Virus record (IMG/VR): IMGVR_UViG_3300012983_000044
Location: 8,249 to 72,248 of that record
Reading direction: 5' to 3' (one strand)
Length of the DNA: 64,000 nucleotides
Origin: a virus
Lineage: Duplodnaviria > Caudoviricetes
Shown: piece by piece, positions 2,965 through 36,438 of the stretch
Position numbering within the stretch: the first letter of the stretch is position 1
How the letters are laid out: each line of letters opens with the position of its first letter
The notes under the pieces: generated by a model
Seen by the model: only the letters and a program-made list of their open reading frames with translations
Databases searched by the model: none
What the model was told of the DNA's origin: nothing
Program-made: the position numbers and the translations under genes

Positions 2965-3419
2965 TCGAGGATCAGCCGTCCGAAACTGAACAATCAAAAA
3001 CGTATAAGAGCTATTCGGAGGTCTTTGACGCCGCTTTCCCCGAGTATCTTGCGATGGGCATGACGTATGACCTTTACTGGCATGGAGATGCTTCGCTGGT
3101 CAAAGCCTTCCGTAAAGCGAAAAAAATCAGGCGAGAAGAAAAAAACTTTGAACTATGGCTTCAAGGGAAATACATTTACGAAGCCATTGGAGCGCTTGCA
3201 CCCATTCTGAGGACTTCTTTAAGCAAAACTCCGGCGAAGGCTGAAAAATACGTCAGTAAGCCATATCCGCTTGACGGGGATGCGGCGAAGAAGGCCATAG
3301 AGAACGCACAGAAAGCGCGTATGATGGGCGCTTTGGAGAGATTCAAACGCGAAGCCGAAACAAAGCGGCTTAAACGATTACAGCAGGAAAAGGAGGCGAG
3401 AGAAAAAAATGGCGAATGA
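2928..3419 (+). CDS. tail assembly chaperone extension (gpT-like), probably made by frameshift
   Basis: -1 frame overlap with upstream ORF; YLAMGMTYDLYWHGD motif. Confidence 0.7.
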   Translation: MDGELEYGGRGLIEDQPSETEQSKTYKSYSEVFDAAFPEYLAMGMTYDLYWHGDASLVKAFRKAKKIRREEKNFELWLQGKYIYEAIGALAPILRTSLSKTPAKAEKYVSKPYPLDGDAAKKAIENAQKARMMGALERFKREAETKRLKRLQQEKEAREKNGE

Positions 3420-6400
3420 AGGCACGAATGAAGTCAATATTGATCGGCTGTCAATAGAAGTCAGTGCAAACGCTGAGCCCGCCGCAAAAAGTATCGGTGA
3501 CCTCGCCTCCGCTGTAAGGAAATTCAATTCTGAAATTGCGAAAAGCAAGGGCTTTGGAGGACTTGTTACTCTTGCGAACGTCTCCAAGACTGCATCGGAC
3601 AATATGCAGGACGCTCCGAACAGGCTGCGCGATCTTGCAAATGCTCTGATCCAGATTTCCAACAGCACTAAGGGACTGAAAATACCATCCGACCTGACTA
3701 AGGGCCTTTCTGAAATCGGGACTGCCGTAAAGTCTATCAGCGCAAATATCGGTCAGCGTATGCAGTCTCTTGCGTCTGGTCTGTCTGCGCTTCGGGACGC
3801 GGGGGAAGTGCGGATTTCCAATTCCATTGGAACTGGCATTAACGCCATCAATGATGCGCTGGCGAAACTGAATGTCAATAATCTGTCACGCATTGACAGG
3901 TTTGTTGAGAGTGTTCGTCAACTGGAAGGCATCAACGGTCTTACTATATCCGCAAGTTTGGCTCGTGAGATCACGAACATTGCTGAGGCTGCGGAATTGA
4001 TCAGCGATGTGGATTTCACTCCGCTTCGAGATATGGGCAATGCCGTTGCTCATCTTGCGGTTGCGAACGATGTCCGCATCAGCAATCGTCTGGCCGAAAA
4101 CATCGTCAACCTCAGCGTTGCCGCTCAGGAAGTTCAGGGAACGGATTGGACTGAGTTTGAACGTATGGCAGAGGGCCTGCGCCATCTTGAAGGGCTTGGG
4201 CAGATTCGCATACCGAAAATACGTCCCACACAGCAGCACGTCAAACAGCGCAAGGACAGCGCCCAAAAGGTGCGTGACGCCAGCGCTACGCAAAATGGTG
4301 GAGGGATTGCTAACGCCACTGATGCTGCTGAGCGGGCTGCTGTTAATGTCGAACGTCTGCGTGGTACACTGAAAAACGCCAATGATGTGCGTGCGTTTGT
4401 GAACGCCAACAGAGATACTGACATTCTTGCTGTGAGGCTGGCTGCGGCGAGGGATCGCTTACAGGACCTCATTAATACAGGCGAAGGAGAACTAAATCTG
4501 AACGCCATTGCCAACGCAACTGAACAAGTAAAGAAGCTTGAACGGGAGCTTGAAAATGCCCGGCACAGCTCTGTGCGTTTTGCCGAACAATTTGGCGGTG
4601 GCTTTGCCAAGGGTGCTGGAATTAGGGGGCTGGTCAGCCAAATTCAGCAGGTATTCTCATCTCCCGGCAATGCCATTGGGTTTGGCCTTGGCGTAGCTGT
4701 GAGGTTTACGGTGACACAAATAGGTCATCTCACCTCCGCGCTGAAAAATGTCGGTATCAAGGCATTTACAACAGGCGTGAACGCGCTAAAGACTGCCCTG
4801 AACGGCATAGGCTCTGCGGCCATGGCTGCTGGCAAGGGCCTGGTTTCGCTTGGCAAAATGGGAGCGAGTGGCCTTGCCAGCATTGCAAATATCGAGTTCA
4901 AGAGCATTATGTCATTGCCTTCGCTGTTTGCCAACAACCTGAAAGATAGGATTGCCGGTGTTGCAAAAAGCATCAGCGGATTTGTACGTTCGCTGGGACG
5001 CATTGCTTTTTACAGGGCAATTCGTACTGCGATCAAGGAAGTTACCAAGGCGTTTACTGATGGTATTGGCAATCTGTATCAGTGGAGTTTGCTGGTAGAT
5101 CACACCTTTGCAAAGAGCATGGACAAGATTGCAACCTACATGCAGTATCTCAAAAACAGCCTGGGTGCAATGGTGGCTCCCATCATCAACACGCTTGCGC
5201 CAGCCATTGATTTTGTGGTGGATAAGTTTGTTGACGGTATCAACCTTGTGAACCAGTTCCTTGCGGCGATTACCGGCAGCGACACCTATACTGCCGCGAA
5301 AAAGGTTGCGACGGAATGGGCTGAGAATGAGACCGAGAAGGCCAACAAGAATCTGAAAGAGCTGAAAAAGACCATCCTTGGCTTCGATGAGCTGAATATT
5401 CTTAACAGGGACACTCGCACGGACGAGCAGAAAAATGGCAAGGAGGTTCCTGACTATCGTTCGATGTTTGAAACCCGGAAAGTCGAAAATGACATTTCCG
5501 ATTTCGCCAGGAAGATTCGTGAAGCGTTTGAGAACGGCGAATGGGCCAGTCTCGGCGGGATGTTTGCCGACAAGTTTAATGCCTTGGTGGATGGTATTGA
5601 CTGGCCGGGTCTTGGAAAAAAGCTCGGTGACGGCCTGAATGGTCTCGCTGGTATTTACAACGGATTCATGGATGGAGTGGATTGGGTTGGCCTTGGCGAT
5701 AGTTTTGCTGATGGTCTTAATAGTCTTATTGAGACTGTAAATTGGCGCGAGCTGGGACGTTCGCTCACACAGCACATTGATGCTCTGTTTGGCGTGATAG
5801 CCGGGTTTGTCGAGAAGTTTGACTGGGTAAAGGCAGGTAAAGCCCTTGCCGATGCTGTCTATGGCATGTTTGACGGCATTGACTGGGATCAGGTCGGGAC
5901 AGCGATAGGCAAAGCACTGACTGGCCTCGGAGGAGCGCTACTCAGTTTTGCGGTAAACTTTCCGTGGGTTGAGGTCGGAACCAGGCTTGGAAATGGAGCG
6001 AACAAACTGTTTGAAAATATCAACTGGGAGACTATTGCCAACGGTCTGCTTGGTGCTTTCAATGGTGCTTTGGATTCACTACTGACTTTCATAAGCACTT
6101 TTAAGTGGACAAAGCACGGACAAGAGTTTGCAAAAGGCATTTTAAGGATCGTTGAGTATTTCCCGACTGCAAAAATGGTTGAATCCATTACATCTGCGCT
6201 TACTGGTGTCATGGACTTTATCCTTCCTACAATTACGGACCCTGAGTTTTGGGATGGTATCGGTGCTCAGTTCAAATCCGCAGTAAGTAAACTGTTCTTG
6301 CAGAGCAATCAGTTCTGGAGCACTCTTGGCGATACCGTACTGTCGCTATTCAAGGGCGCTTTGCGGTCCATTACGAAGTTTGCCAGTGAATTTGAGTGGG

Positions 6401-8847
6401 GGGAAGCAGGAAAGAAATTTGGCAATGCCATCTTTAAGATCGTTGACAACTTCCCGCTTAATGAGCTGGGAACTGCCTTGGAAACGCTCATGGAAGGCGC
6501 GTTTGACTTTGTGAATAACATGCTTGGGGAAGAAAACTCACAGATGTTCACAAAGTTCGGGGATAGGCTTGCCACGTTCTTCAATAATGCCTTTAGCAAT
6601 AAGACGCTTTTTACCAAGGCTGGCGAAGCAGCCAACAAACTACTGCTTGGCATTTTGTCAATCGGAGATTCATTTGTCCGTGGTTTTAACGCCAAAGAGG
6701 CCGGTGACAGCATTGCGAGGGCATTGGACAAGATTAATTGGAATACGATTGCCAGCACTACGTGGGTGCTTATAAAAGAAGCATTTAAGAAAACCGGAGA
6801 CTTTCTTGATGCGCTGTTTGGAGATGGAACCCGGGTAGAATATGATTCAATGCTGCGCATGAATCGTATTATCAAAGATGATCGCAGTCTTGGTACGAAG
6901 ATTGGAGCAAGGATTTCTGCTGCTATTGGGAGTATTGACTGGAAACAGTTTGGCGCAGATATAGGTAAGGGCGCAAGGGCACTCTTTAGTGCAATAGCAG
7001 ATTTCTTTAACAAGCTCAGGGACGAAGGCGAGGTCCGAACTGCGATTACGAATTTCTTCGCAGGGCTAAAAGTTCGTGAAACGGTTGACGCTGCTATCAG
7101 TGCGCTCGGTTCATTCTTTTCGTTTTTTGCCGATGCCTTTAGAGATTCTTTATTGGAAGCACTTATTAATGCGTTGAATGGTGTAATAGGCAAAGCGTTG
7201 ATAGGCAAAGAGAACTACGACGCCCTCGTTTCGGGGAATGTGGATGAAGGCTTAACCGGAACTGTGTTAAGAGCTCTTATGGGACCTGTGTATGATATGA
7301 TCGGCAACATCGGTAAAGCAGGCGGTGTATTATTCGGCGGCCTGTTTGGTGGAGGTTCGGCTCTTGCCGAAGGTGAAGGCCAGGGGTTTACATTTGACAC
7401 AAACTCCATTACCAACATGTTCATTCAGCCTGGAGGTATTCATGATGCTTTTGAACAAGGCTGGTCGTCCATCAACGCAATGACAAAAACGTGGATGGAA
7501 ACCATACAGGGTACGATCTCTCAATCCATTCAGGGAATGGTTACACTGGTTCTGCAACCCTTGAACAACCTGACTGAAATCGGCATTCCTGGGATTCTAC
7601 TCAGAATCAACGCTACTGTCACGACGGGGCTTAATGCCATTCAGCAGGCAGTTTCAGGCGAAGGCGGTATGCAGGGGCTTGTCACGCTGGTGTTGCAGCC
7701 TTTGAACAACCTGGCTGACGTTGGTGTTCCCAATAAAATAAACAGCATTGTTGGTACATTTACAAGTGGCTGGGGAAACATCAACTCTGCGACTGCAACC
7801 GCTATGACGCTGCTGCAAACCACGATAATGACGGCCCTTAGCAATCTGTCGAATGTTGGAATCCCGACGAAGATGTCCAGTTTTAGCACAACCATTACAA
7901 GTGGTTGGAATGCAATAAACTCTGCGACTGCAACCGCTATGACGCTGTTCCAGAGTACCATACTGACTGCGCTGACTAACCTCGCAAGTGTCGGTTTTCC
8001 CACGAAAATGTCCAGTTTCCTTACTACGGTCAGCACGGGGTGGACATCTATAAACTCCAACACCGCTACATCCATGACGCAGTTCCAGAGTGTTATCATG
8101 CAGGCGATGAACAACCTGAGCAATGTTGGGATTCCGAACACGATGCGATCAATCTCATCGACGTTCTCAAATGGGTTTTACAGCATCAGCGCTGGTGTGG
8201 CTACAACCATGACACAAGTGCAAAGCAGCGTTTTGCAAGCGTTGACAAACATTGAGAACGTGCTGCCCGGGCGATTCAGGAACATGGTCAACAGCATCAT
8301 CAGCGTATCAAACGGCATGATTGGTGGCGTTGAAAGCGCAACAAACAGCGTTGTCAATGGACTGAATAATGCTCTCCAGGTCCACTTGCGGTTTGACAAA
8401 CCGTCATGGGCTGGCGGCGGGACTTACACTTGGGACTTTTATCCGAATCTGCCTCATGTGAATTTCGGGAGGATCAACGCGCTTGCCGAAGGCGGCATAT
8501 TGGACGGCCCTATAATGCTGACACCCGATGTGCTTGCTGGAGAAGCCGGACGTGAGGCTGTGCTGCCGCTTGAAAGCCATACCGAGTGGATGGATGAAGT
8601 GGCCGAAAGGGTGTTGGCACAATCCGCCGAAAATGGGATTTCGCTGGCAACGAGCTATGACATTGGCGACTACGAGTACGAGCAAAACAGCGAACAGGAG
8701 CTTGCACTTTTGCGTGAACAAAACCGTCTGCTGCAACAGTTGATCGACAAGGATTACAACTTTGAGATCACTACAGGGCAGTACGAAAAGGCGCAGCGCC
8801 GCACAAACCGCAGGGCCGGGAAAATGATCATTGCTACCGGCACCTAA
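3409..8847 (+). CDS. tape measure protein
   Basis: 1812 aa, Ala/Gly-rich helical sequence with periodic W/F residues; canonical position. Confidence 0.92.
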   Translation: MANEGTNEVNIDRLSIEVSANAEPAAKSIGDLASAVRKFNSEIAKSKGFGGLVTLANVSKTASDNMQDAPNRLRDLANALIQISNSTKGLKIPSDLTKGLSEIGTAVKSISANIGQRMQSLASGLSALRDAGEVRISNSIGTGINAINDALAKLNVNNLSRIDRFVESVRQLEGINGLTISASLAREITNIAEAAELISDVDFTPLRDMGNAVAHLAVANDVRISNRLAENIVNLSVAAQEVQGTDWTEFERMAEGLRHLEGLGQIRIPKIRPTQQHVKQRKDSAQKVRDASATQNGGGIANATDAAERAAVNVERLRGTLKNANDVRAFVNANRDTDILAVRLAAARDRLQDLINTGEGELNLNAIANATEQVKKLERELENARHSSVRFAEQFGGGFAKGAGIRGLVSQIQQVFSSPGNAIGFGLGVAVRFTVTQIGHLTSALKNVGIKAFTTGVNALKTALNGIGSAAMAAGKGLVSLGKMGASGLASIANIEFKSIMSLPSLFANNLKDRIAGVAKSISGFVRSLGRIAFYRAIRTAIKEVTKAFTDGIGNLYQWSLLVDHTFAKSMDKIATYMQYLKNSLGAMVAPIINTLAPAIDFVVDKFVDGINLVNQFLAAITGSDTYTAAKKVATEWAENETEKANKNLKELKKTILGFDELNILNRDTRTDEQKNGKEVPDYRSMFETRKVENDISDFARKIREAFENGEWASLGGMFADKFNALVDGIDWPGLGKKLGDGLNGLAGIYNGFMDGVDWVGLGDSFADGLNSLIETVNWRELGRSLTQHIDALFGVIAGFVEKFDWVKAGKALADAVYGMFDGIDWDQVGTAIGKALTGLGGALLSFAVNFPWVEVGTRLGNGANKLFENINWETIANGLLGAFNGALDSLLTFISTFKWTKHGQEFAKGILRIVEYFPTAKMVESITSALTGVMDFILPTITDPEFWDGIGAQFKSAVSKLFLQSNQFWSTLGDTVLSLFKGALRSITKFASEFEWGEAGKKFGNAIFKIVDNFPLNELGTALETLMEGAFDFVNNMLGEENSQMFTKFGDRLATFFNNAFSNKTLFTKAGEAANKLLLGILSIGDSFVRGFNAKEAGDSIARALDKINWNTIASTTWVLIKEAFKKTGDFLDALFGDGTRVEYDSMLRMNRIIKDDRSLGTKIGARISAAIGSIDWKQFGADIGKGARALFSAIADFFNKLRDEGEVRTAITNFFAGLKVRETVDAAISALGSFFSFFADAFRDSLLEALINALNGVIGKALIGKENYDALVSGNVDEGLTGTVLRALMGPVYDMIGNIGKAGGVLFGGLFGGGSALAEGEGQGFTFDTNSITNMFIQPGGIHDAFEQGWSSINAMTKTWMETIQGTISQSIQGMVTLVLQPLNNLTEIGIPGILLRINATVTTGLNAIQQAVSGEGGMQGLVTLVLQPLNNLADVGVPNKINSIVGTFTSGWGNINSATATAMTLLQTTIMTALSNLSNVGIPTKMSSFSTTITSGWNAINSATATAMTLFQSTILTALTNLASVGFPTKMSSFLTTVSTGWTSINSNTATSMTQFQSVIMQAMNNLSNVGIPNTMRSISSTFSNGFYSISAGVATTMTQVQSSVLQALTNIENVLPGRFRNMVNSIISVSNGMIGGVESATNSVVNGLNNALQVHLRFDKPSWAGGGTYTWDFYPNLPHVNFGRINALAEGGILDGPIMLTPDVLAGEAGREAVLPLESHTEWMDEVAERVLAQSAENGISLATSYDIGDYEYEQNSEQELALLREQNRLLQQLIDKDYNFEITTGQYEKAQRRTNRRAGKMIIATGT
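7600..8250 (+). repeat. 45-aa (135-nt) tandem repeats in tape measure C-terminal region
   Basis: TCTGCGACTGCAACCGCTATGACGCTG at 7786 and 7921; repeated GWxxINSxTAT..LSNVGIP units. Confidence 0.75.
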
Positions 8848-9256: not shown

Positions 9257-12200
9257 ATGTACCCGATCACAAATGCAGTAAAGGCGCTGTTTGACGCGGA
9301 GCAACGACAGGTGCTTCGCATTACCGGCGCGGACAGGAACGGCAACGCCATTTATCTTACCGAGGCGAACGTCATGGAGGGCGGCTTCAACATTGACCGC
9401 TACTCCTGCAATGGCTCCAAACTTGAAATCGGCACGGCGATTGCCGCCGAAATGACCATCAAACTTGACAACCGCCAGGGCCAGTTTGACAACGTTACCT
9501 TTGAAGGTGCTGAGCTGTTTGTAGAGGTTGGTATTGCCGACTGGACGAAAGCGAACCCGGTTGTGAACTATATCCCCTGCGGATATTTTACGCCGGATGA
9601 ACAGCCCAGGCGATTGAGCACCATATCGCTCAATGCGCTTGACCGTATGACGAGGTTTGACGATGTTCAGCCCTCCATGCTCCCCTGGACGGACAACCTT
9701 GGCAACAGGATCACCGATAACCGCAACAATGTCATCTATTTTGCCGCAGTGCTTGACTTCCCGGCTACGATAGAAAGCCTTGTGAAGCAGCTTTGCGACA
9801 TTTGCGCTGTACCCCTTGCCACTGACCTGACATCCATGCCGAACTATGATTATATCATTACCGGGCTGCCTGACGTTCAGGGCAATATTACGGCACGAAA
9901 TATGATCCAGTGGTGTGCTGGTATTATGGCCTCCAATGCGTGGATCGACTGGGACGGCAAACTGCGTTTTTCCTGGTACGACAATGAGACGGGCTATACC
10001 TTAACGACTGCAAACCGTTATGACAGCGATCTATACGAGAATGACATCGTTGTTACGGGCGTGCAGTGGGTCGATACGAACGACAACAACACAGTTTACC
10101 TGTCTGGAACAGGCGAGTATGTGCTGGATATGTCAGACAATGCGCTGATTGACAGCTCCATGGCTAATGATGTCCTGAACGATGTCTACAATGTCATACA
10201 CAGCTTTGCCTATCGTCCGTTTAATGCGACGGTGGTTCCCGCGCCCTATCTGTGGCCGATGGACAGGATTACGTTTACGGACAAAAACGGCGGCGGGCAT
10301 GTGAGCCTGTTGACGAATGTCAACTTTACCATCAATGGTACGACTGTCATCGCGGCCAACGGCGAGACGGCTCAGACGAGCGGCATGGCGATGCCCAGCG
10401 GCTTTACGTCAGAGCAACTGCAAATCCTGCGCAAAATCCGCCGCACGAATGCCGCCGATCTGAATACGGCCATCGACAATGCGACAAAGCTGATTACGGG
10501 TGCGGATGGCGGCTATGTCCGGTTCATCTATGATGAAAACGACATACTGACAGAGATCGTTATACTGGACACCAACGACCTTACAACCGCGACAAAGGTC
10601 TGGCGGTTTAACAGCGGTGGCCTTGGCTACAGCAGCAATGGCTATGCGGGTCCGTACAAGCTGGCTATGACGCAGGATGGGGCCATTGTTGCGGACTTTA
10701 TCACGACGGGCATAATGAGTGCGAACGTGGTCCGCGCCGGACTGCTGACGGATGCCACTGGCAAAAACCTATGGGACCTTGACCGGGGAATATTCAGGCT
10801 GGCCGGAAACTCAGAGTTGGACGGGCGTCCCCTTACCCAGCTTTTGAGTGACATTGACGCAACAATTACCAGTGTTGATGTCGAGTTTGCACAGAATCAG
10901 AGCCAAACGGTTGCGCCTACGGATGGATGGTCTACAGACGCCCCTTCCTGGGCGGCGAACTATTATATCTGGCAGAGAACCAAGACGGTCACGCCTTCTG
11001 GAGTAAACTACAGTGAACCCGTCTGCATCAGCGGCAGGGACGGCAGCGAGAGCACGCCTGGTTTGAATCAGGCTACGATCTATCTCTACCAGAGATCAGA
11101 CGTTCCCCCCGCAAAGCCAACTGTCAGGGCGCTCTACACCTTTGTCAACGGCACGTTGTCGCCTATACCGTCTGGATGGTCTCGCAGTATACAGACCGGT
11201 TCCGCTCCGTGCTGGGTGACAACTGCAATGGCGATCTCTACCGATACTGAGGATTATATCGAGCCGGGAGATTGGGCAGAGCCTGCCATTTTTGCCGAGA
11301 ATGGCGGTGACGGCAGCAGCATTGACAATATCGTGAACTACTATGCTGTCAGCGATACCACAAACCCGCCCGCTGATTCTGAGTTCTGGACGCCCGGTGT
11401 TCCCGCGCTTTGGACGGATAACTATGGCAATGTCATTACGGCTGGCGCAAGCGGCAACATCGAGTTCATGCCGCCTGCCGTGCCCCTACCTACTCAGACA
11501 GACAGGTATGTTTGGCAATATCAGTTGACGACCTACACGGACGGCACAAGCACGAAGTCCAACAAGTATATCAGCTCCATCCTTGGCGATGCCGGTGTCG
11601 GTATCAGTCAGATCGTAGAGGAATACTATCTTTCCGCAAGCAACACGGAACAGGTCTTTGGTGAGTGGTCCACGGAACAGCCTGAATGGGTGAGCGGATA
11701 TTACATCTGGACGCGGACGGTCATAACGTGGACGGATAACAAGGTCACTACCACTGATCCCGTGCTGGCCCAGGCCATCAACCTCGCCAACGAGAATGCT
11801 GACGGTGCTGTCAACCTTGCCAACAAGGCCATAGACAACACCAACAATCTTGACGCGAGTCTGAATCAGGCGGGCGTGTTTAACCGGCTGACCAACAACG
11901 GCGCTGTTCGCGGTATTTTCCTTGAAAATAATCAGATGTACGTCAACGCTGATTACATCAAGGGCGGCACGATTGACGCGGCGCTGATCGCGGCTGGCAG
12001 TATTATCATCAGTCAGTTAAGTGATAGCGCACAAAGCGCCCTTCTGATCGGCGCTACGGTCAAGATGCAGTATTACCTCAGCACAAGCCCCACAAAGGCT
12101 GAGGGAGGCAGTTGGTCAGATTCGGTTCCTGCATGGAGCACGAACAAGTATGTCTGGACAAAGACCGTAACGACCAAGAAGTATGCGGATAATACTGAAA

Positions 12201-15320: not shown

Positions 15321-16322
15321 ATGCAGATTACATCTCTGCCCGCAACGAGCACCCTTGGCGACAACGACGTACTGGCCGTTGAAGTCAATGGCGTTACCTA
15401 CAAGATCACTGGCGCTACTCTTGCGGCTGCGCTCCAGAGCATCGGTTCTCCGCTGGCTGCCGACAAGGGCGGCACTGGCCTGACGGCAAGCCCTTCTCTG
15501 CTGACGAACCTTTCCAGCTCCAGCGCCGCGAATATTCTTGCGGCTTCCCCGCGCCCCGGCGTGACCGGAGTTCTACCGCTGGGCAACGGCGGCCTTGGCA
15601 AGGACTTCTCCGCAGCAGCCTCAGTCGCAGGATTCCACAATTCCATCTTCCGGGGGAAAAACCTGGGCACGTCCCTCACCACGGCGCAGTCCGCGCAGAT
15701 CACGGCGGGAACCTTCGACGACATGTTCATCGGGGACTACTGGGTCATCAATGGCGTCACCTGGCGCATTGCAGACTTCGATCCCTACTACCGCTGCGGC
15801 GACAGCGCCAGCCTGGGCCATCACATCGCCGTCGTCCCGGACAACAACCTTTATTCCACCAAGTGGAATGAGACGAACGACACTTCTACCGGCTATGTCG
15901 GCTCCGCCATTCGCGCCAACATCAAGGCCACATCCGCGTCTGATGCCGGTGCGGAAGAAAAAGTCATCGCTGCGTTTGGCGATGCGCACGTTCTTGCATA
16001 CCGTGCCGAGTACCCCACGACCTATGCGGATGGCGCGGCTACCGGCTGGGCTTGGACGGATGCCCGCGTTGAACTGATGAACGAGGTTGAGGTTTACGGC
16101 TGCAACGTGTGGAGCAGCATGCCCGGCTACGAAACCGGCATTAACAAGCGTCAGCTTTCGCTTTTCCGTCTGGCACCGCAGTTCATCAACATCCGTGCCA
16201 ACTGGTGGCTTCGGAGCGTCAGGTCCGCTACCGACGCCTGCCATGTCAACAACACCGGCTACGCCTCCTCCAACAGTGCGTCCTACTCCCTTGGTGTCCG
16301 CCCGCTTTCCTTGATCCACTAA
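15321..16322 (+). CDS. DGR target protein 1 (probable receptor-binding/tail fibre tip, CLec-type C-terminus)
   Basis: Ends in WWLRS...GVRP variable region matching the TR; directly after the tail spike gene. Confidence 0.88.
   Translation: MQITSLPATSTLGDNDVLAVEVNGVTYKITGATLAAALQSIGSPLAADKGGTGLTASPSLLTNLSSSSAANILAASPRPGVTGVLPLGNGGLGKDFSAAASVAGFHNSIFRGKNLGTSLTTAQSAQITAGTFDDMFIGDYWVINGVTWRIADFDPYYRCGDSASLGHHIAVVPDNNLYSTKWNETNDTSTGYVGSAIRANIKATSASDAGAEEKVIAAFGDAHVLAYRAEYPTTYADGAATGWAWTDARVELMNEVEVYGCNVWSSMPGYETGINKRQLSLFRLAPQFINIRANWWLRSVRSATDACHVNNTGYASSNSASYSLGVRPLSLIH
16192..16310 (+). repeat. DGR variable repeat VR1
   Basis: 119-nt ungapped alignment with 17074-17192; all 13 mismatches fall at TR adenines. 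Confidence 0.95.
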
Positions 16323-16325
16323 TCC

Positions 16326-16342
16326 TGCCGCCTGTGGCGGCA
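16326..16342 (+). promoter_or_regulatory. DGR target-recognition hairpin 1
   Basis: TGCCGCC-TGT-GGCGGCA just downstream of VR1/IMH. Confidence 0.8.
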
Positions 16343-16372: not shown

Positions 16373-17053
16373 ATGAGCGGTGTACATAAAAGTGAACGTG
16401 GCGAAAGCAAATTTGAAGTTCTGGACCATGCCATTATTCTGAAAAACATGATCCGCGAGCTGAGCATATTGCGGAACTATGGCTATAAGGTACGCACGAG
16501 CAAGACGCCCAAGAACTTTGAGGCCTGGAGCGAAGCCAGCAAGGAACGCTGGAAGCAAAAGGAAGAAGAACGCCTCAAAAAGCTGGAATGGCTGGACAGG
16601 CACTTCCTTGTTGAGAAGCGCAGGCATGTTGAAGATGATCTCATGCGGATGATGCACGGGATCAGCGCCGCCAACGCCATTCAGCGCCCGTCCTCCATGA
16701 CCGAGGCTGATGAAAGACGAATCCAGCAGGACAGAGCGATTGCGGCTTGCGAGGATTTGAGGGTGGATTTGCAGGACATCATGGACACTGTTCCGATAGA
16801 CAAAAACTGGATGACGCATATTGAGCCTGAAATCGTGTCGCAGATCGCTTTGCTCAAAGCATGGCGCAAGAGTGACAACGATATGCGGAAGGCCGTGCGT
16901 GAAGCAGATATGAAACGGTGGATCAAATTCCTGCAAAGGTGTATGAAGGAAGGTTCAGATACGGAGTTTCTGAAAGGAATCTACCATGCGTTTCTAAATG
17001 GTATGGAACGGTGCGAACTGGATGATAAAGACAGAAAAGTGCCGAAACCATAA
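16373..17053 (+). CDS. avd: DGR accessory variability determinant (Avd-like)
   Basis: Helical basic protein between target and TR; MSGVHKSERGESKFEV start typical of Avd-like four-helix proteins. Confidence 0.75.
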   Translation: MSGVHKSERGESKFEVLDHAIILKNMIRELSILRNYGYKVRTSKTPKNFEAWSEASKERWKQKEEERLKKLEWLDRHFLVEKRRHVEDDLMRMMHGISAANAIQRPSSMTEADERRIQQDRAIAACEDLRVDLQDIMDTVPIDKNWMTHIEPEIVSQIALLKAWRKSDNDMRKAVREADMKRWIKFLQRCMKEGSDTEFLKGIYHAFLNGMERCELDDKDRKVPKP

Positions 17054-17073: not shown

Positions 17074-17192
17074 TACGTGCCAACTGGTGGCTTCGGAGCG
17101 TCAGGTCCGCTACCAACGCCTGCAATGTCAACAACAACGGCAACGCCAACAACAACAGTGCGTCCAACTCCAATGGTGTCCGCCCGATTTCC
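17074..17192 (+). ncRNA. DGR template repeat (TR)
   Basis: AAC/AAT-rich (12 AAY codons in target frame); matches VR1 and VR2 except at adenines. Confidence 0.95.
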
Positions 17193-17331: not shown

Positions 17332-18630
17332 ATGAGTGTATTTGAGATGGATAGCCTTTCATGGGACAGTCTGCCGGAAGCGCAGCAAACCGCCCATGAA
17401 TGGAATGACTTGGGGGAACCGAGAGAGTACAGCGTCATTTCCGACGCAAACACGCTGTGGGATGCTGCAAACAGCGCCAGGAAGGGAACTTCCTGGAAAG
17501 AGAGCGTCCAGAAGTTTTGGTGGTATCGTCTGACACGCATTGCTCAAATGCAGGATGGGTTGTACCGCTTGGAGCACGGCATGGATAATTCCTATTACCC
17601 CAAGCCTGGTTATGAGTTCATGTTGAATGAGCGTGGGCGCATGCGTCCGATCTGCGGTCAGATAGTGGATGACAGGGTTGTCAGTCACGCTTTGAATGAC
17701 GCGGTGCTCATCCCGGCAATCAGGCCGTATCTGATTTACGACAATGGCGCAAGCCTGAAAGACCGTGGCGTTGATTTCTCGCGCCGTAGATTGCTGGTCC
17801 ATCTTCACAGATATTTCCAGCGCAACGGAACGAACGTTGGATATATACGGATGAAGGATCAGAGTAAATATTATGACAACATTCGCCATGACAGACTGCG
17901 CGAGATCATAAGCCGTTTTACTGACGATCCCCTGGCGCTGAAACTTGTACATATTTTGCTGCTTGAAAGCCGGGTTGATGTATCGTATATGAGCGATGAG
18001 GAATACGCTGAAAGCATGGATGTCAAGTTTGACAGAGTGTCATACCGGGCGATGAACTACCCCAGGACCGGCAAACGGAAACTCTGCAAGGGCATGAACG
18101 TTGGCGATCAATTTAGTCAAACGGCTGGAATCGTCTATCCATACCAGGTAGATAGCTATGCCAAGACGGTTCTCGGCAGCAAATACTACGCGAGATATAT
18201 GGATGACAGCTACGACATTGACAGCGATCTTTCTGTACTGAGGCGACGGGCAACCCTGATCGACAAGAAGGCAGACACGCTTGGCATGTATACGAATGTT
18301 CGGAAAACGTGCATTGCAAGGCTTGACAAGGGGTTTGTGTATTTACAGCGCAAAATCCGCCTTCGCTGTGATGGCAGCATAGATGTCAAACTCAGGCCGA
18401 AGGCCGTAACGAGGATCAAGCGCAGAATCCGAAAACTGCGTGAAAAAGTCCAGAGCGGGAAAGTCCCTCTCCTGGACATGGCAAACATGGTGAAAAGCTG
18501 GATATGTGCAAGGCGCGACTGCCTTACCTATCCCCAGCTTCGCACAATAGAACTGACTGTTTTATCAATTTACGGGAGGGAAGCATATGAATACGTTTAC
18601 GATCACTCTGAGCAATGGTCGGCAGTTTAG
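17332..18630 (+). CDS. DGR reverse transcriptase
   Basis: GMNVGDQFSQ and YARYMDD motifs; adjacent to avd and TR. Confidence 0.95.
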   Translation: MSVFEMDSLSWDSLPEAQQTAHEWNDLGEPREYSVISDANTLWDAANSARKGTSWKESVQKFWWYRLTRIAQMQDGLYRLEHGMDNSYYPKPGYEFMLNERGRMRPICGQIVDDRVVSHALNDAVLIPAIRPYLIYDNGASLKDRGVDFSRRRLLVHLHRYFQRNGTNVGYIRMKDQSKYYDNIRHDRLREIISRFTDDPLALKLVHILLLESRVDVSYMSDEEYAESMDVKFDRVSYRAMNYPRTGKRKLCKGMNVGDQFSQTAGIVYPYQVDSYAKTVLGSKYYARYMDDSYDIDSDLSVLRRRATLIDKKADTLGMYTNVRKTCIARLDKGFVYLQRKIRLRCDGSIDVKLRPKAVTRIKRRIRKLREKVQSGKVPLLDMANMVKSWICARRDCLTYPQLRTIELTVLSIYGREAYEYVYDHSEQWSAV

Positions 18631-34034: not shown

Positions 34035-35719
34035 ATGGAACAGACGACGATCAAGACCCCGAAAAAGACGGCGGCGCTGGCTCCCAAGACGACCCAGGCA
34101 GTGGCGAAGAAGCAGGGTACGGCGCTGGACTACCTGAACAACGGGAAGTTCAAGGAACAGCTTGCGGCGGCTCTGCCGAAGTTCCTGGACACCGACCACT
34201 TCATTCGCTCGGCAATCACTGAGTTCCGGCTGAATCCCGAGCTGGCTGAGTGCTCTGTCCCCTCTGTGCTGGGCTACTTCATGCAGGCGGCGGCTTGCGG
34301 TCTGGAGCCCGCGTCGATGCTGGGACAGTGCTACCCCGTGCCGTTCAACAACAAAAAGACGGGGCAGAGGGAAGCACAGTTCATTTGTGGCTGAAACTTT
34401 GCGGTCACATTAAACCGTGTGAACCCTATTACTCAGGGGTGTGCCGAAAGGTGCTAACGGGGGAACCCGCCGACAAAGGGCAATCCCGTGCTTTAAGGAG
34501 ATAGCGATGATAGCCATTTACAAGATCACCAACACCACAAACGGTCAATTCTACATCGGTTCTTCCGGGAATTACAGGAAGCGATTGCAGAAGTGGCGAG
34601 ACTGGCGTAACAGCGCCAGTAATCCGAAACTGATCCATGATTTTCAGACCATCGGATTTGACAAGTTCGTGTTTGAGGTCATTCAGGAGTTGCCGCCCGG
34701 AACATCGAGGCGTGAACGGGAACAGATGGAATATGATTTGATCCATCAGTTACAGCCGTTCTACAACACGATAGGGAAGGAACGACCGCCTGATACGCGA
34801 GAAAAGCTACGCAATGCGAGCCTTGGAAGGAAGCATACTGCCGAGGAATTGCAAAAACAATCCGCTTCCCTGAAAGCGAGATTTGCAGAACATTCGAGAG
34901 ACGGTTCATGTACATTCAAACCTGTCTTTGTGGTGGAGACGGGGGAGACGTTTGAAAACGTAAAGGCGGCGACTGCTGCCCTGGGATGCGGAGATGGATG
35001 CGTGAGCAGAGCATTAAAGCGCCCGAATTATACGGTGAGAGGCTATCACGTTCGATACTTGGAGTGTAGAGACTAACCGCGATGAATGTAGCGGTGTAGG
35101 GCCGAGGATGAGTTACGGCCCGAAGTGCATGGCATCCGAAAGGATGAAGATATAGTCCACTCCCGCAGGATGGTAAACTGCGGGGATGAGTGACAGAGGA
35201 ATGTTGAGTATCGCGCGGCGCAGCGGCGAAATTGCCAGTGTTGACGCGCAGATCGTCCACGCGAATGATACGTTCGACATTGAGTATGGCCTGGAGCCGA
35301 AGCTGGTCCATAAGCCCTGCCTGACCGGTGATCCCGGTCAGATGATCGGCGCGTATGTCGTGGTCCGCTTCAAGGGTGATGGCGTGGAACCGCTGATGAA
35401 GTACATGCCGAAATCCGAGATCGACAATCACCGCAAGCGCAGCAAGGCCAGTTCCTACGGCCCGTGGGTCACCGACTATGACGAGATGGCGAAAAAGACC
35501 GTGTTCCGCAGCGTGTTCAAGTGGCTGCCTATCTCCATTGAGCAGATTCAGGCGACGACAACGGACGGCGCGGTTTCCCGCTACAACGCCAATGCCAAGA
35601 CGGATGACATCGAGGACCTGGTGGAGGTCGAGTTTGTGGCCGCCGAGGATGACAGCCGCGTGACGGCGGAGGAGGCAGTTGAGCAGTTCGCAGGCGGAGA
35701 TGACAAGCAGGAGGGTTGA
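34035..35719 (+). CDS. recT: RecT recombinase, two exons (34035-34392 and 35193-35719)
   Basis: Splicing restores QFICG-Y-RGM and gives a 294-aa RecT with MAKKTV motif; downstream of YqaJ. Confidence 0.88.
34393..35192 (+). mobile_element. group I intron (800 nt)
   Basis: Exon ends in U, intron ends in G; conserved elements GGCAATCCCGTG, GAGACTAA and AAGATATAGTCC. Confidence 0.88.
34507..35076 (+). CDS. intron-encoded GIY-YIG homing endonuclease
   Basis: AIYKITN..FYIGSS; NUMOD3-like GRKHT repeat; RBS AAGGAG. Confidence 0.88.
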   Translation: MIAIYKITNTTNGQFYIGSSGNYRKRLQKWRDWRNSASNPKLIHDFQTIGFDKFVFEVIQELPPGTSRREREQMEYDLIHQLQPFYNTIGKERPPDTREKLRNASLGRKHTAEELQKQSASLKARFAEHSRDGSCTFKPVFVVETGETFENVKAATAALGCGDGCVSRALKRPNYTVRGYHVRYLECRD

Positions 35720-35743: not shown

Positions 35744-36418
35744 ATGGATAACATGTGCGAAAGCAAAAATGACACCGTGAACATTCACGCCTCGTGCGGT
35801 TCGTTCTTTGTGGATGTGACCATTCAGGGGGCGGCATGGCCGCATGTGGCAGATGAAGATCGCGTGCCCGTTGAAGTTGCTGGCAGGCCCCGCGTTGGTG
35901 AGGTCATGCGCTTCGAGTTAACGGATGGTGAACCTGTTGAGGTGATGGTGCTGGAGGATGACGGCGATGCGGCGACGCTCATTTTCGTTGATTGCCTGAA
36001 AGACGAATACCCTCTGAAAGAAGATGGGGATTACAGCGGCGGGTACGAAAGCTCCGATCTGAGGAAGAAGCTCAACGATGAAATCCTGAAACGCTTCCCG
36101 CAGGAAATGCTCAAACGCATGGTGCCTTTCGCCAACGGGGATATGCTCAGAATCCCTACTGAGCGTGAAATTTTTGGCGAGAACAAGTATGGCAAAGAAG
36201 AACCCGATACCGTGCGGCAGTTTGAAGCCATGAAAAAGCGCAGGAACCGCATTGCGTTCCAGGGTTTGAACGGCGATTGGGAATGGTATTGGCTACAGAA
36301 CAAAGTTCGGAGCGTCAGGTCCGCTACCCACGCCTGCAATGTCTACGCCCACGGCTACGCCGGCTACACCAGTGCGTCCACCTCCTATGGTGTCCGCCCG
36401 CTTTTCAAATATCGGTAA
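35744..36418 (+). CDS. DGR target protein 2 (remote; DUF6273-like)
   Basis: YSGGYESSDLRKKLN..IPTEREIFG..WYWL..GVRP; 3' end matches the TR. Confidence 0.85.
   Translation: MDNMCESKNDTVNIHASCGSFFVDVTIQGAAWPHVADEDRVPVEVAGRPRVGEVMRFELTDGEPVEVMVLEDDGDAATLIFVDCLKDEYPLKEDGDYSGGYESSDLRKKLNDEILKRFPQEMLKRMVPFANGDMLRIPTEREIFGENKYGKEEPDTVRQFEAMKKRRNRIAFQGLNGDWEWYWLQNKVRSVRSATHACNVYAHGYAGYTSASTSYGVRPLFKYR
36306..36404 (+). repeat. DGR variable repeat VR2
   Basis: 99-nt ungapped alignment with TR 17092-17190; all 13 mismatches fall at TR adenines. Confidence 0.93.
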
Positions 36419-36421
36419 TCC

Positions 36422-36438
36422 CGCCGCCTGTGGCGGCG
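36422..36438 (+). promoter_or_regulatory. DGR target-recognition hairpin 2
   Basis: CGCCGCC-TGT-GGCGGCG, same as hairpin 1 with a compensatory outer pair. Confidence 0.8.

Follow-up and report, generated by a model that had tools for sequence, protein, structure and literature searches.

To our knowledge, phage DGRs are understood almost entirely as tropism-switching devices. The DGR described here resembles that of Bordetella phage BPP-1 in several respects: information passes from template repeat (TR) to variable repeat (VR) in an adenine-specific manner, the VR lies at the 3′ end of a gene, a GC-rich IMH is followed by a downstream hairpin, and the variable domain has the C-type lectin fold. 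Its second target differs from the BPP-1 variable protein Mtd, a 381-residue trimeric tail-fibre tip protein whose gene sits beside the cassette. Unlike Mtd, target 2 is a single-domain protein, is remotely encoded and belongs to a replication operon, and the structural match between the two is weak (1yu0, Z 2.5).

Among the closest described systems is Roseburia phage Shimadzu. Its VR2 lies in orf43, a gene 'of unknown function'; sequencing reads show both VRs to be modified, and both were changed in all five virulent isolates (Cornuault et al., 10.1101/575076). Target 2 is homologous to orf43 (31.7% identity over 79% of the query), and both genes carry a remote VR in an early region. Target 2 differs from orf43 by an extra, poorly predicted N-terminus of 46 residues, and its phage (72 kb, with an 1812-residue tape measure) differs from Shimadzu, a 45-kb myovirus with a recognisable Avd.

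For FP_Toutatis, the accessible text of Egorov et al. (10.1101/2024.10.15.618418) describes a core DUF6273 protein as second target, encoded 17,480 nt away from the TR and read as a receptor-binding protein, and reports that some Toutatis-like phages retain targets without a DGR. Faecalibacterium phages Lelie and CP11 have large and small DUF6273 targets to which the authors, in the available part of that report, assign no function (PMC11792537). Compared by description, the small proteins of Toutatis, Lelie and CP11 resemble target 2 in consisting of DUF6273 alone with the VR at the C-terminus. The authors give them a receptor-binding or unspecified role, and in the accessible portions of both reports the replication-module context goes unmentioned (10.1101/2024.10.15.618418; PMC11792537). 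Baykov and colleagues modelled DUF6273-only targets as lectin-fold domains, the gene in that case lying inside the cassette (PMC10743442).

Distal second VRs near DNA methyltransferase genes have also been described, in the accessible text of a 2025 Nature paper, for four human-gut prophage species and linked to a phage-host arms race (PMC12629997). By description our locus is similar, since C5 and amino methyltransferase genes flank the target 2 region. Taken over all DGR-bearing prophages of that paper, the hosts are mostly Bacteroidota, unlike those of the Clostridia relatives of the phage studied here; the portion consulted gives neither the hosts of the four double-VR species nor a protein family. 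The large metagenome survey of Roux et al. notes that remote targets were beyond the reach of its method.

Given the Shimadzu, Toutatis and human-gut prophage reports, both the observation made here and the gist of an arms-race reading have precedents. The arrangement is real and probably active, and it has already been published for related phages. Relative to the accessible text of the literature cited, the additions are the family-wide location in the replication module, the stand-alone architecture and the co-occurrence of hairpin and reverse transcriptase (RT), none of which we found there.

One template repeat and two variable repeats

The window, that is the whole 64,000-nt stretch of DNA analysed, comprises bases 8249-72248 of a 72,248-base IMG/VR record rated complete by CheckV. 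The phage is temperate and derives from gut or rumen. Its genes follow the order tape measure, tail protein, target 1, TR, RT, endolysin, integrase, repressor and an early operon with target 2 (Table 1); the integrase and the CI-like repressor are encoded on the minus strand.

Table 1. Positions of the features discussed, numbered from the first base of the window
Feature	Position	Strand	Remarks
Tape measure	3409-8847		1812 aa
Target 1 gene	15321..16322	+	333 aa; directly 3′ of a 2011-aa tail protein
VR1	16194..16308	+	12 mismatches to the 99-nt TR core (over 16210-16308), every one at a TR adenine
Hairpin 3′ of VR1	16326..16342	+	identical to the VR2 hairpin
Accessory ORF	16373..17053	+	226 aa, charged, Lys/Arg/Glu-rich; between VR1 and TR
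TR	17076..17190	+	99-nt core 17092-17190; homology to VR1 from ~17076, to VR2 from 17092
DGR reverse transcriptase	17332..18630	+	phrog_1423, E 3e-42; VGDQFSQ and YMDD motifs
recT, N-terminal part	34035-34394
GIY-YIG homing endonuclease ORF	34441-35076		between the recT halves
recT, C-terminal part	35186-35719		3′ exon
Target 2 gene	35753..36418	+	221 aa; stand-alone DUF6273 / C-type-lectin-fold protein; VR2 at 3′ end
VR2	36306..36404	+	identical to TR 17092-17190 at 86/99 bases
GC-rich end segment of VR2, GGTGTCCGCCCG	36389..36400	+	IMH-like; next base C, A in TR; read from the sequence
Hairpin 3′ of VR2	36422..36438	+	7-bp GC stem, TGT loop; DNA fold centroid

It is firmly supported that VR2 is a genuine remote second target of the single DGR of this phage. 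Searched on both strands without allowing gaps, the window contains two copies of the TR core besides the TR itself, VR1 and VR2. All 13 mismatches between VR2 and the TR fall at TR adenines, of which the 99 nt contain 27. The hypergeometric chance of adenine-only mismatches is 3.2e-9 for VR2 and 1.9e-8 for VR1, and on the former value a chance similarity of VR2 was rejected. A third DGR target was likewise rejected, as the whole 72-kb record holds no further copy of the TR. Since 27 of 27 core adenines occupy codon positions 1 or 2, the TR amounts to a run of Asn codons; such a run of AAY codons is the classic DGR template design.

VR1 is changed too at seven of the 13 positions where VR2 departs from the TR, and at merely three of these seven do the two carry the identical base, from which we infer that the VRs were diversified independently. 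A reading of this DNA from the sequence alone (hereafter the sequence-only reading) had proposed that one TR serves both targets, that VR2 differs from it by 13 mismatches confined to adenines, and that these mostly differ from those in VR1. Our scan and recount agree with the first two statements. The last one holds for the substituted bases and fails for the positions, seven of which are common to both repeats.

Directly after the GC-rich segment the TR reads GATT (17186-17190) where both VRs read GCTT (16305-16308 and 36401-36404), which accounts for one of the three positions with a common base. The same difference is seen in Acutalibacter phage Fontainebleau, in Shimadzu and in the IMG/VR relative (L045) for which the TR end was displayed. 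Its recurrence across relatives suggests that it is probably a fixed TR/VR boundary difference rather than a product of mutagenesis. For this lineage of DGRs, GATT versus GCTT is a candidate universal boundary marker between TR and VR.

VR1 also carries GGTGTCCGCCCG followed by C, a position at which the TR has A, and the hairpins of VR1 and VR2 both begin 22 nt past this segment. A comparison of DNA folds with those of VR1 and VR2 gave no such hairpin after the TR. Sequence and fold together thus bear out the earlier statement that VR2 has the initiation segment and hairpin of VR1.

The motifs of the RT match the [ILV]GxxxSQ and YxDD patterns of DGR-clade RTs, and its match to Pfam RVT_1 (E 8e-6) is under the curated cut-off. 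It begins 141 nt after the end of the TR and is 34-45% identical to the TR-adjoining RTs of 10 related records. The accessory variability determinant, Avd, is a four-helix bundle whose gene normally lies between VR1 and TR, and the usual Avd is about half the size of the accessory ORF found here. This ORF is termed accessory on the basis of its canonical Avd position; searches of Pfam, PHROGs, NCBIfam and PDB sequences gave no match to it. The spacing of VR1 and TR is similar in relatives, at ~700 nt. Based on the conserved spacing, the length of 226 residues and the lack of a family match, the ORF may represent a distinct type of accessory protein.

Upstream of target 1 lie the tape measure and tail protein ORFs, and its C-terminus gives a weak match to DUF6273. 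Targets 1 and 2 are 31% identical over 156 gapped columns (BLASTP E 1e-6), a weak similarity restricted to the lectin-fold domain; the N-terminus of target 2 is unrelated to target 1, as had been noted from the sequence.

Target 2 and its place in the early operon

The likelier start of target 2 is the ATG at 35753, which has GGAGG 9 nt before it, and the copy of the protein in the protein collection is also 221 residues long. The alternative ATG at 35744 would give 224 residues; this longer ORF (35744-36418), which the sequence-only reading took as the gene, does exist, but its start is the less likely of the two. The protein matches PF19789 (DUF6273) with an E-value of 1.8e-9, exceeding the curated cut-off, and phrog_21980 with an E-value of 1.5e-23. 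A megablast search of the target 2 region against GenBank phages returned no match.

Target 2 was modelled with AlphaFold2 from an alignment of 61 homologues. The model forms a single folded domain (residues 50-224), confidently predicted for residues 50-170 and poorly for both the first 46 residues, which are lineage-specific, and the hypervariable VR stretch. Foldseek found no match to this model in the PDB at E <= 0.001. A wide structural search gave as its matches the DUF6273 N-terminal domain of the Thomasclavelia ramosa IgA peptidase (9qa6, Z 10.3, 146 aligned residues), the Treponema denticola DGR variable protein TvpA (2y3c, Z 5.9, 126 aligned residues), the C-terminal domain of Legionella Lcl (8q4e, Z 5.1), a Bacteroides fimbrial protein (4eps, Z 4.9) and, further down, Mtd, together with FGE-like proteins and many C-type lectins. 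These matches indicate that target 2 has the C-type-lectin / FGE-like fold of DGR variable proteins; structure prediction had been suggested beforehand as a check for this fold, and it yields it with low confidence in the VR stretch. TvpA and the IgA peptidase domain have this fold in common with target 2. In contrast to target 2, a phage protein with no export signal, they are bacterial proteins that are secreted or sit at the cell surface.

No signal peptide, membrane segment or virion-anchoring domain was found in target 2, and in the AlphaFold2 model no beta-prism or beta-sandwich precedes the lectin-fold domain as it does in Mtd. Tentaclins, a family defined by an N-terminal lectin-fold domain and Ig-like domains (PMC10743442), were considered and rejected as an identity for target 2, which has no Ig domain by either Pfam or the model and carries its VR at the 3′ end.

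The gene lies 19.2 kb from the TR within a recE / recT / ssb / dnaB operon, and not in the tail module. This rightward early operon starts with a replication initiator, a loader, a RecE-like exonuclease, a radical-SAM protein and a C5 methyltransferase, and continues with a recT split by GIY-YIG, target 2, phrog_997, phrog_1029, ssb, a second methyltransferase and dnaB; thyX is found farther on. Target 2 is separated from its neighbours by gaps of 33 and 39 nt, and a promoter and terminator scan around it gave nothing exceeding shuffled expectation. Pfam and PHROG annotation therefore agrees with the placement first read from the open reading frames, between recT and the ssb/dnaB genes and away from virion genes. 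Just upstream, the division of recT into two parts by the homing endonuclease ORF looks like an intron or mobile insertion.

Relatives of target 2

Natural variation in VR2 was assessed with 16 close relatives of target 2 from metagenomes (75-100% identity). Amino-acid entropy among these is 2.69 bits at the 11 positions that are Asn in the TR, against 0.28 bits for the remaining VR positions and 0.33 bits for target 2 outside the VR. Variation is thus almost confined to the TR-Asn codons, consistent at the population level with diversification of VR2 in nature, and it speaks against an invariant VR2, the outcome that the sequence-only reading had named as contrary to its proposal. These population data suggest that VR2 is active. 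A decaying duplicate was rejected, given the conserved scaffold of the family (33 invariant columns across 61 sequences) and the substitutions at Asn codons in the 16 relatives.

Among GenBank phages, tblastn returned two homologues. The first, CDS 9330-9899 of Acutalibacter phage Fontainebleau, is flanked by genes for DNA polymerase I and a helicase; the second, Shimadzu orf43, has a methyltransferase on one side and Erf on the other. Each phage has an RT, and the homologue of each aligns at its 3′ end with the RT-adjoining TR and with VR1 in a tail-module gene. As judged by eye, the TR/VR mismatches in Fontainebleau and Shimadzu are mainly at TR adenines. The repeats of the Fontainebleau DGR with its two VRs (L003, ON453893.1) lie at about 9800-9885, 34390-34475 and 35105-35190; the GenBank record annotates the RT only, and the paper naming the phage is silent on a DGR.

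In the protein collection, 1,905 clusters belong to the family at E <= 1e-5, nearly all of them stand-alone proteins of ~190 residues. For a survey of their surroundings we kept 80 IMG/VR loci with homologues from 184 IMG/VR hits. Prophage copies come from Lachnospiraceae, Oscillospiraceae, Christensenella and other Clostridia, in gut and rumen samples, and no hydrophobic segment fit for a signal peptide or membrane anchor was found in the 80 homologues. A TR-like match within 10 kb of the homologue is present in 2/80 loci only. An RT is present in 12 of the 25 long records searched, and in 10 of the 16 records that are at least 90% complete. In ten of the 12 RT-bearing records an A-rich TR adjoins the RT, with VR1 ~700 nt upstream of it. 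The 3′ end of the homologue differs from the TR in these ten records at 3-18 bases, and with the exception of a single base in one record these are all TR adenines. In 10/10 RT-bearing records tested, the homologue is accordingly a remote VR on the same strand, 9-38 kb from TR and RT; this count leaves out two records (G005 and G007) with divergent RT hits only and no TR match to the homologue.

The cis elements recur as well. GGNGTNCGNCC, the matching GC-rich segment, is present in 79 of the 80 loci, and a hairpin of the kind described above in 62. The hairpin in relatives is GC-rich, with a stem of 7-10 bp and a CTTGT or CCTGT loop, and starts 19-28 nt past GGNGTNCGNCC; its stems vary among lineages but remain complementary, that is, they covary. 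All ten RT-bearing records have it, compared with one of six near-complete records without an RT (Fisher p 0.0014). The family accordingly includes DGR targets as well as undiversified proteins. In the six records that are near-complete and contain the homologue with no detectable RT (L067, L070, L079, L084, L086 and L088), the GC segment coding for GVRP is kept, and five of them lack the downstream hairpin. The family thus persists without DGR targeting, and its survival in phages with no RT indicates that its basic function needs no continuous diversification. The RT-less members agree with the DGR-less Toutatis-like phages that keep their targets, as the accessible text of that report describes them (10.1101/2024.10.15.618418).

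For the neighbour survey, five ORFs on either side of the homologue were clustered across the 80 loci and representatives annotated. A replication, recombination or methylase gene is found within five ORFs in at least 53 of the 80 loci. Recurrent neighbours are a C5 DNA methyltransferase (27 loci), a membrane-anchored 3D-domain hydrolase-like protein (20), DNA polymerase (15), helicase (13), repressor (12), primase (11), Holliday-junction resolvase and a transcription regulator (10 each), D5 primase-helicase (7), and MT-A70 methyltransferase, serine integrase, a MazF-like protein and an HD hydrolase (6 each). There is no structural annotation among the recurrent neighbour clusters (13 of the 21 representatives scanned were annotated). 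Neighbours in 23/80 loci, mostly large records with tandem paralogues, gave no annotation, and minus-strand clusters with no family match are possibly antisense shadow ORFs. The non-structural placement originally claimed for target 2 therefore extends to at least 53 of 80 contigs and to Fontainebleau and Shimadzu.

The 3D-domain (MltA/Rpf-like) protein belongs to phrog_25245 and has an N-terminal membrane anchor; it is encoded at 9365-9943 of L056 and in 19 other loci, in each case preceding the DUF6273 gene by one to four ORFs and, in nine of the 20, directly adjoining it. In Shimadzu, the third gene before orf43 is a 'cell wall hydrolase'.

Readings of target 2 function

On the mechanism we propose, TR RNA would be copied by the DGR RT with misincorporation at adenines, and the cDNA would then take the place of VR1, which precedes the TR by ~0.9 kb, or of VR2, which follows it by 19.2 kb on the same strand. 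What is recognised in each VR is probably its GC-rich end segment together with the hairpin beyond it. Up to 11 Asn (AAC/AAT) codons would thereby be rewritten on the ligand-binding face of the C-type-lectin-fold domain. The short gaps to its neighbours and the lack of a promoter or terminator signal suggest co-transcription of target 2 with the early genes for recombination and replication, and the protein may bind a variable macromolecule of the host or of a rival element, for example a defence component.

As it has no signal peptide, membrane segment or anchoring domain, target 2 is most likely a soluble product of the infected or induced cell rather than a component of the virion. Together with the gene position and the DNA-modification neighbours, these features give what we consider about an even chance that it is a soluble, early-made, non-virion protein acting in the cell. 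Gene position is a mere proxy for timing and location, and the possible link to anti-defence is guilt by association with methyltransferase genes only. We know of no phage DGR variable protein characterised so far that is not an extracellular binder on the virion, which counts against an intracellular role. So do the published readings of the family, which favour receptor binding (PMC10743442; and, in its accessible text, 10.1101/2024.10.15.618418), and the common TR with its library of Asn codons, which would suit two proteins recognising related surface ligands.

It is on these grounds possible, though we think it less probable than a role in the cell, that target 2 is an accessory receptor-binding protein or adhesin of the virion encoded outside the structural module, docking non-covalently on tail or head as Mtd does and lending the particle a second variable specificity. 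The fold class that target 2 has in common with Mtd, TvpA and other DGR variable proteins points this way, as does the TR that it uses together with the tail-module target. Two groups have read the family as receptor-binding, and it is a core gene in Toutatis-like phages (PMC10743442; accessible text of 10.1101/2024.10.15.618418); in Shimadzu, both VRs are altered in five of five virulent isolates (10.1101/575076). Set against this, the family has replication, recombination and methylase neighbours in three characterised phages as well as in 53 or more of the 80 contigs, and an annotated structural gene never adjoins it. The N-terminal prism and sandwich domains of Mtd are thought to attach it to the tail fibre. 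The typical ~190 residues of the family amount to the lectin-fold domain alone, with no such domains, and among ~1,900 clusters there is one fused form.

Two further readings appear weaker. Target 2 could be a soluble lectin released at lysis or from spontaneously induced lysogens and acting extracellularly, where it might for instance mask the receptors of debris or of competitors, or attach to mucus or further glycans of the gut. A protein with no signal peptide whose fold otherwise serves extracellular ligands would fit this, as would the membrane-anchored hydrolase-like gene just upstream in 20/80 loci, and a 2026 preprint reports phage DGR targets in bacterial secretomes without particles, albeit for a different, tentaclin-type target. 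Expression from an early operon seems poorly suited to a product needed after lysis, however, and we regard release as unlikely. VR2 might also be a by-product, a duplicated lectin-fold module that arrived in the early region with its cis elements and has no selected function, since retrohoming needs cis elements only and any copy carrying them would be diversified. This we consider highly improbable: the scaffold is strongly conserved (33 invariant columns in 61 sequences), the family counts ~1,900 clusters, its placement recurs in unrelated phage morphotypes, and the substitutions are limited to designed Asn codons with the frame left open.

Extending the role in the cell from this phage to the family, we tentatively suggest, as a possibility we would ourselves still doubt, that the ~1,900 clusters of stand-alone DUF6273 proteins, encoded in replication and DNA-modification modules of Clostridia phages, are cytoplasmic binders made hypervariable by DGRs and directed at variable proteins of defence systems or rival phages. 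If so, they would constitute an anticipatory repertoire and correspond, on the viral side, to the STAND antigen sensors that bacteria diversify by DGRs; targeted hypermutation would then serve phages in conflicts inside the cell and not in adsorption alone. A conserved and naturally diversified target among replication and DNA-modification genes suggests a further use of targeted hypermutation. The family has cultivable members in Shimadzu (Roseburia intestinalis) and Fontainebleau (Acutalibacter muris), so the question of function is directly testable.

Less usual forms of the family were also seen. Three large records hold two to three tandem DUF6273 paralogues within ~5 kb (L072 8665-13979, L075 8664-14206 and L093 6610-10522), interleaved with proteins of 235-245 residues for which no annotation was obtained. 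The sole longer form found is a singleton of 415 residues (P0121) that combines DUF6273 with D5-type primase-helicase domains (PF19263, PF03288), and it may either have arisen from faulty gene calling or be a rare case of fusion to a replication protein.
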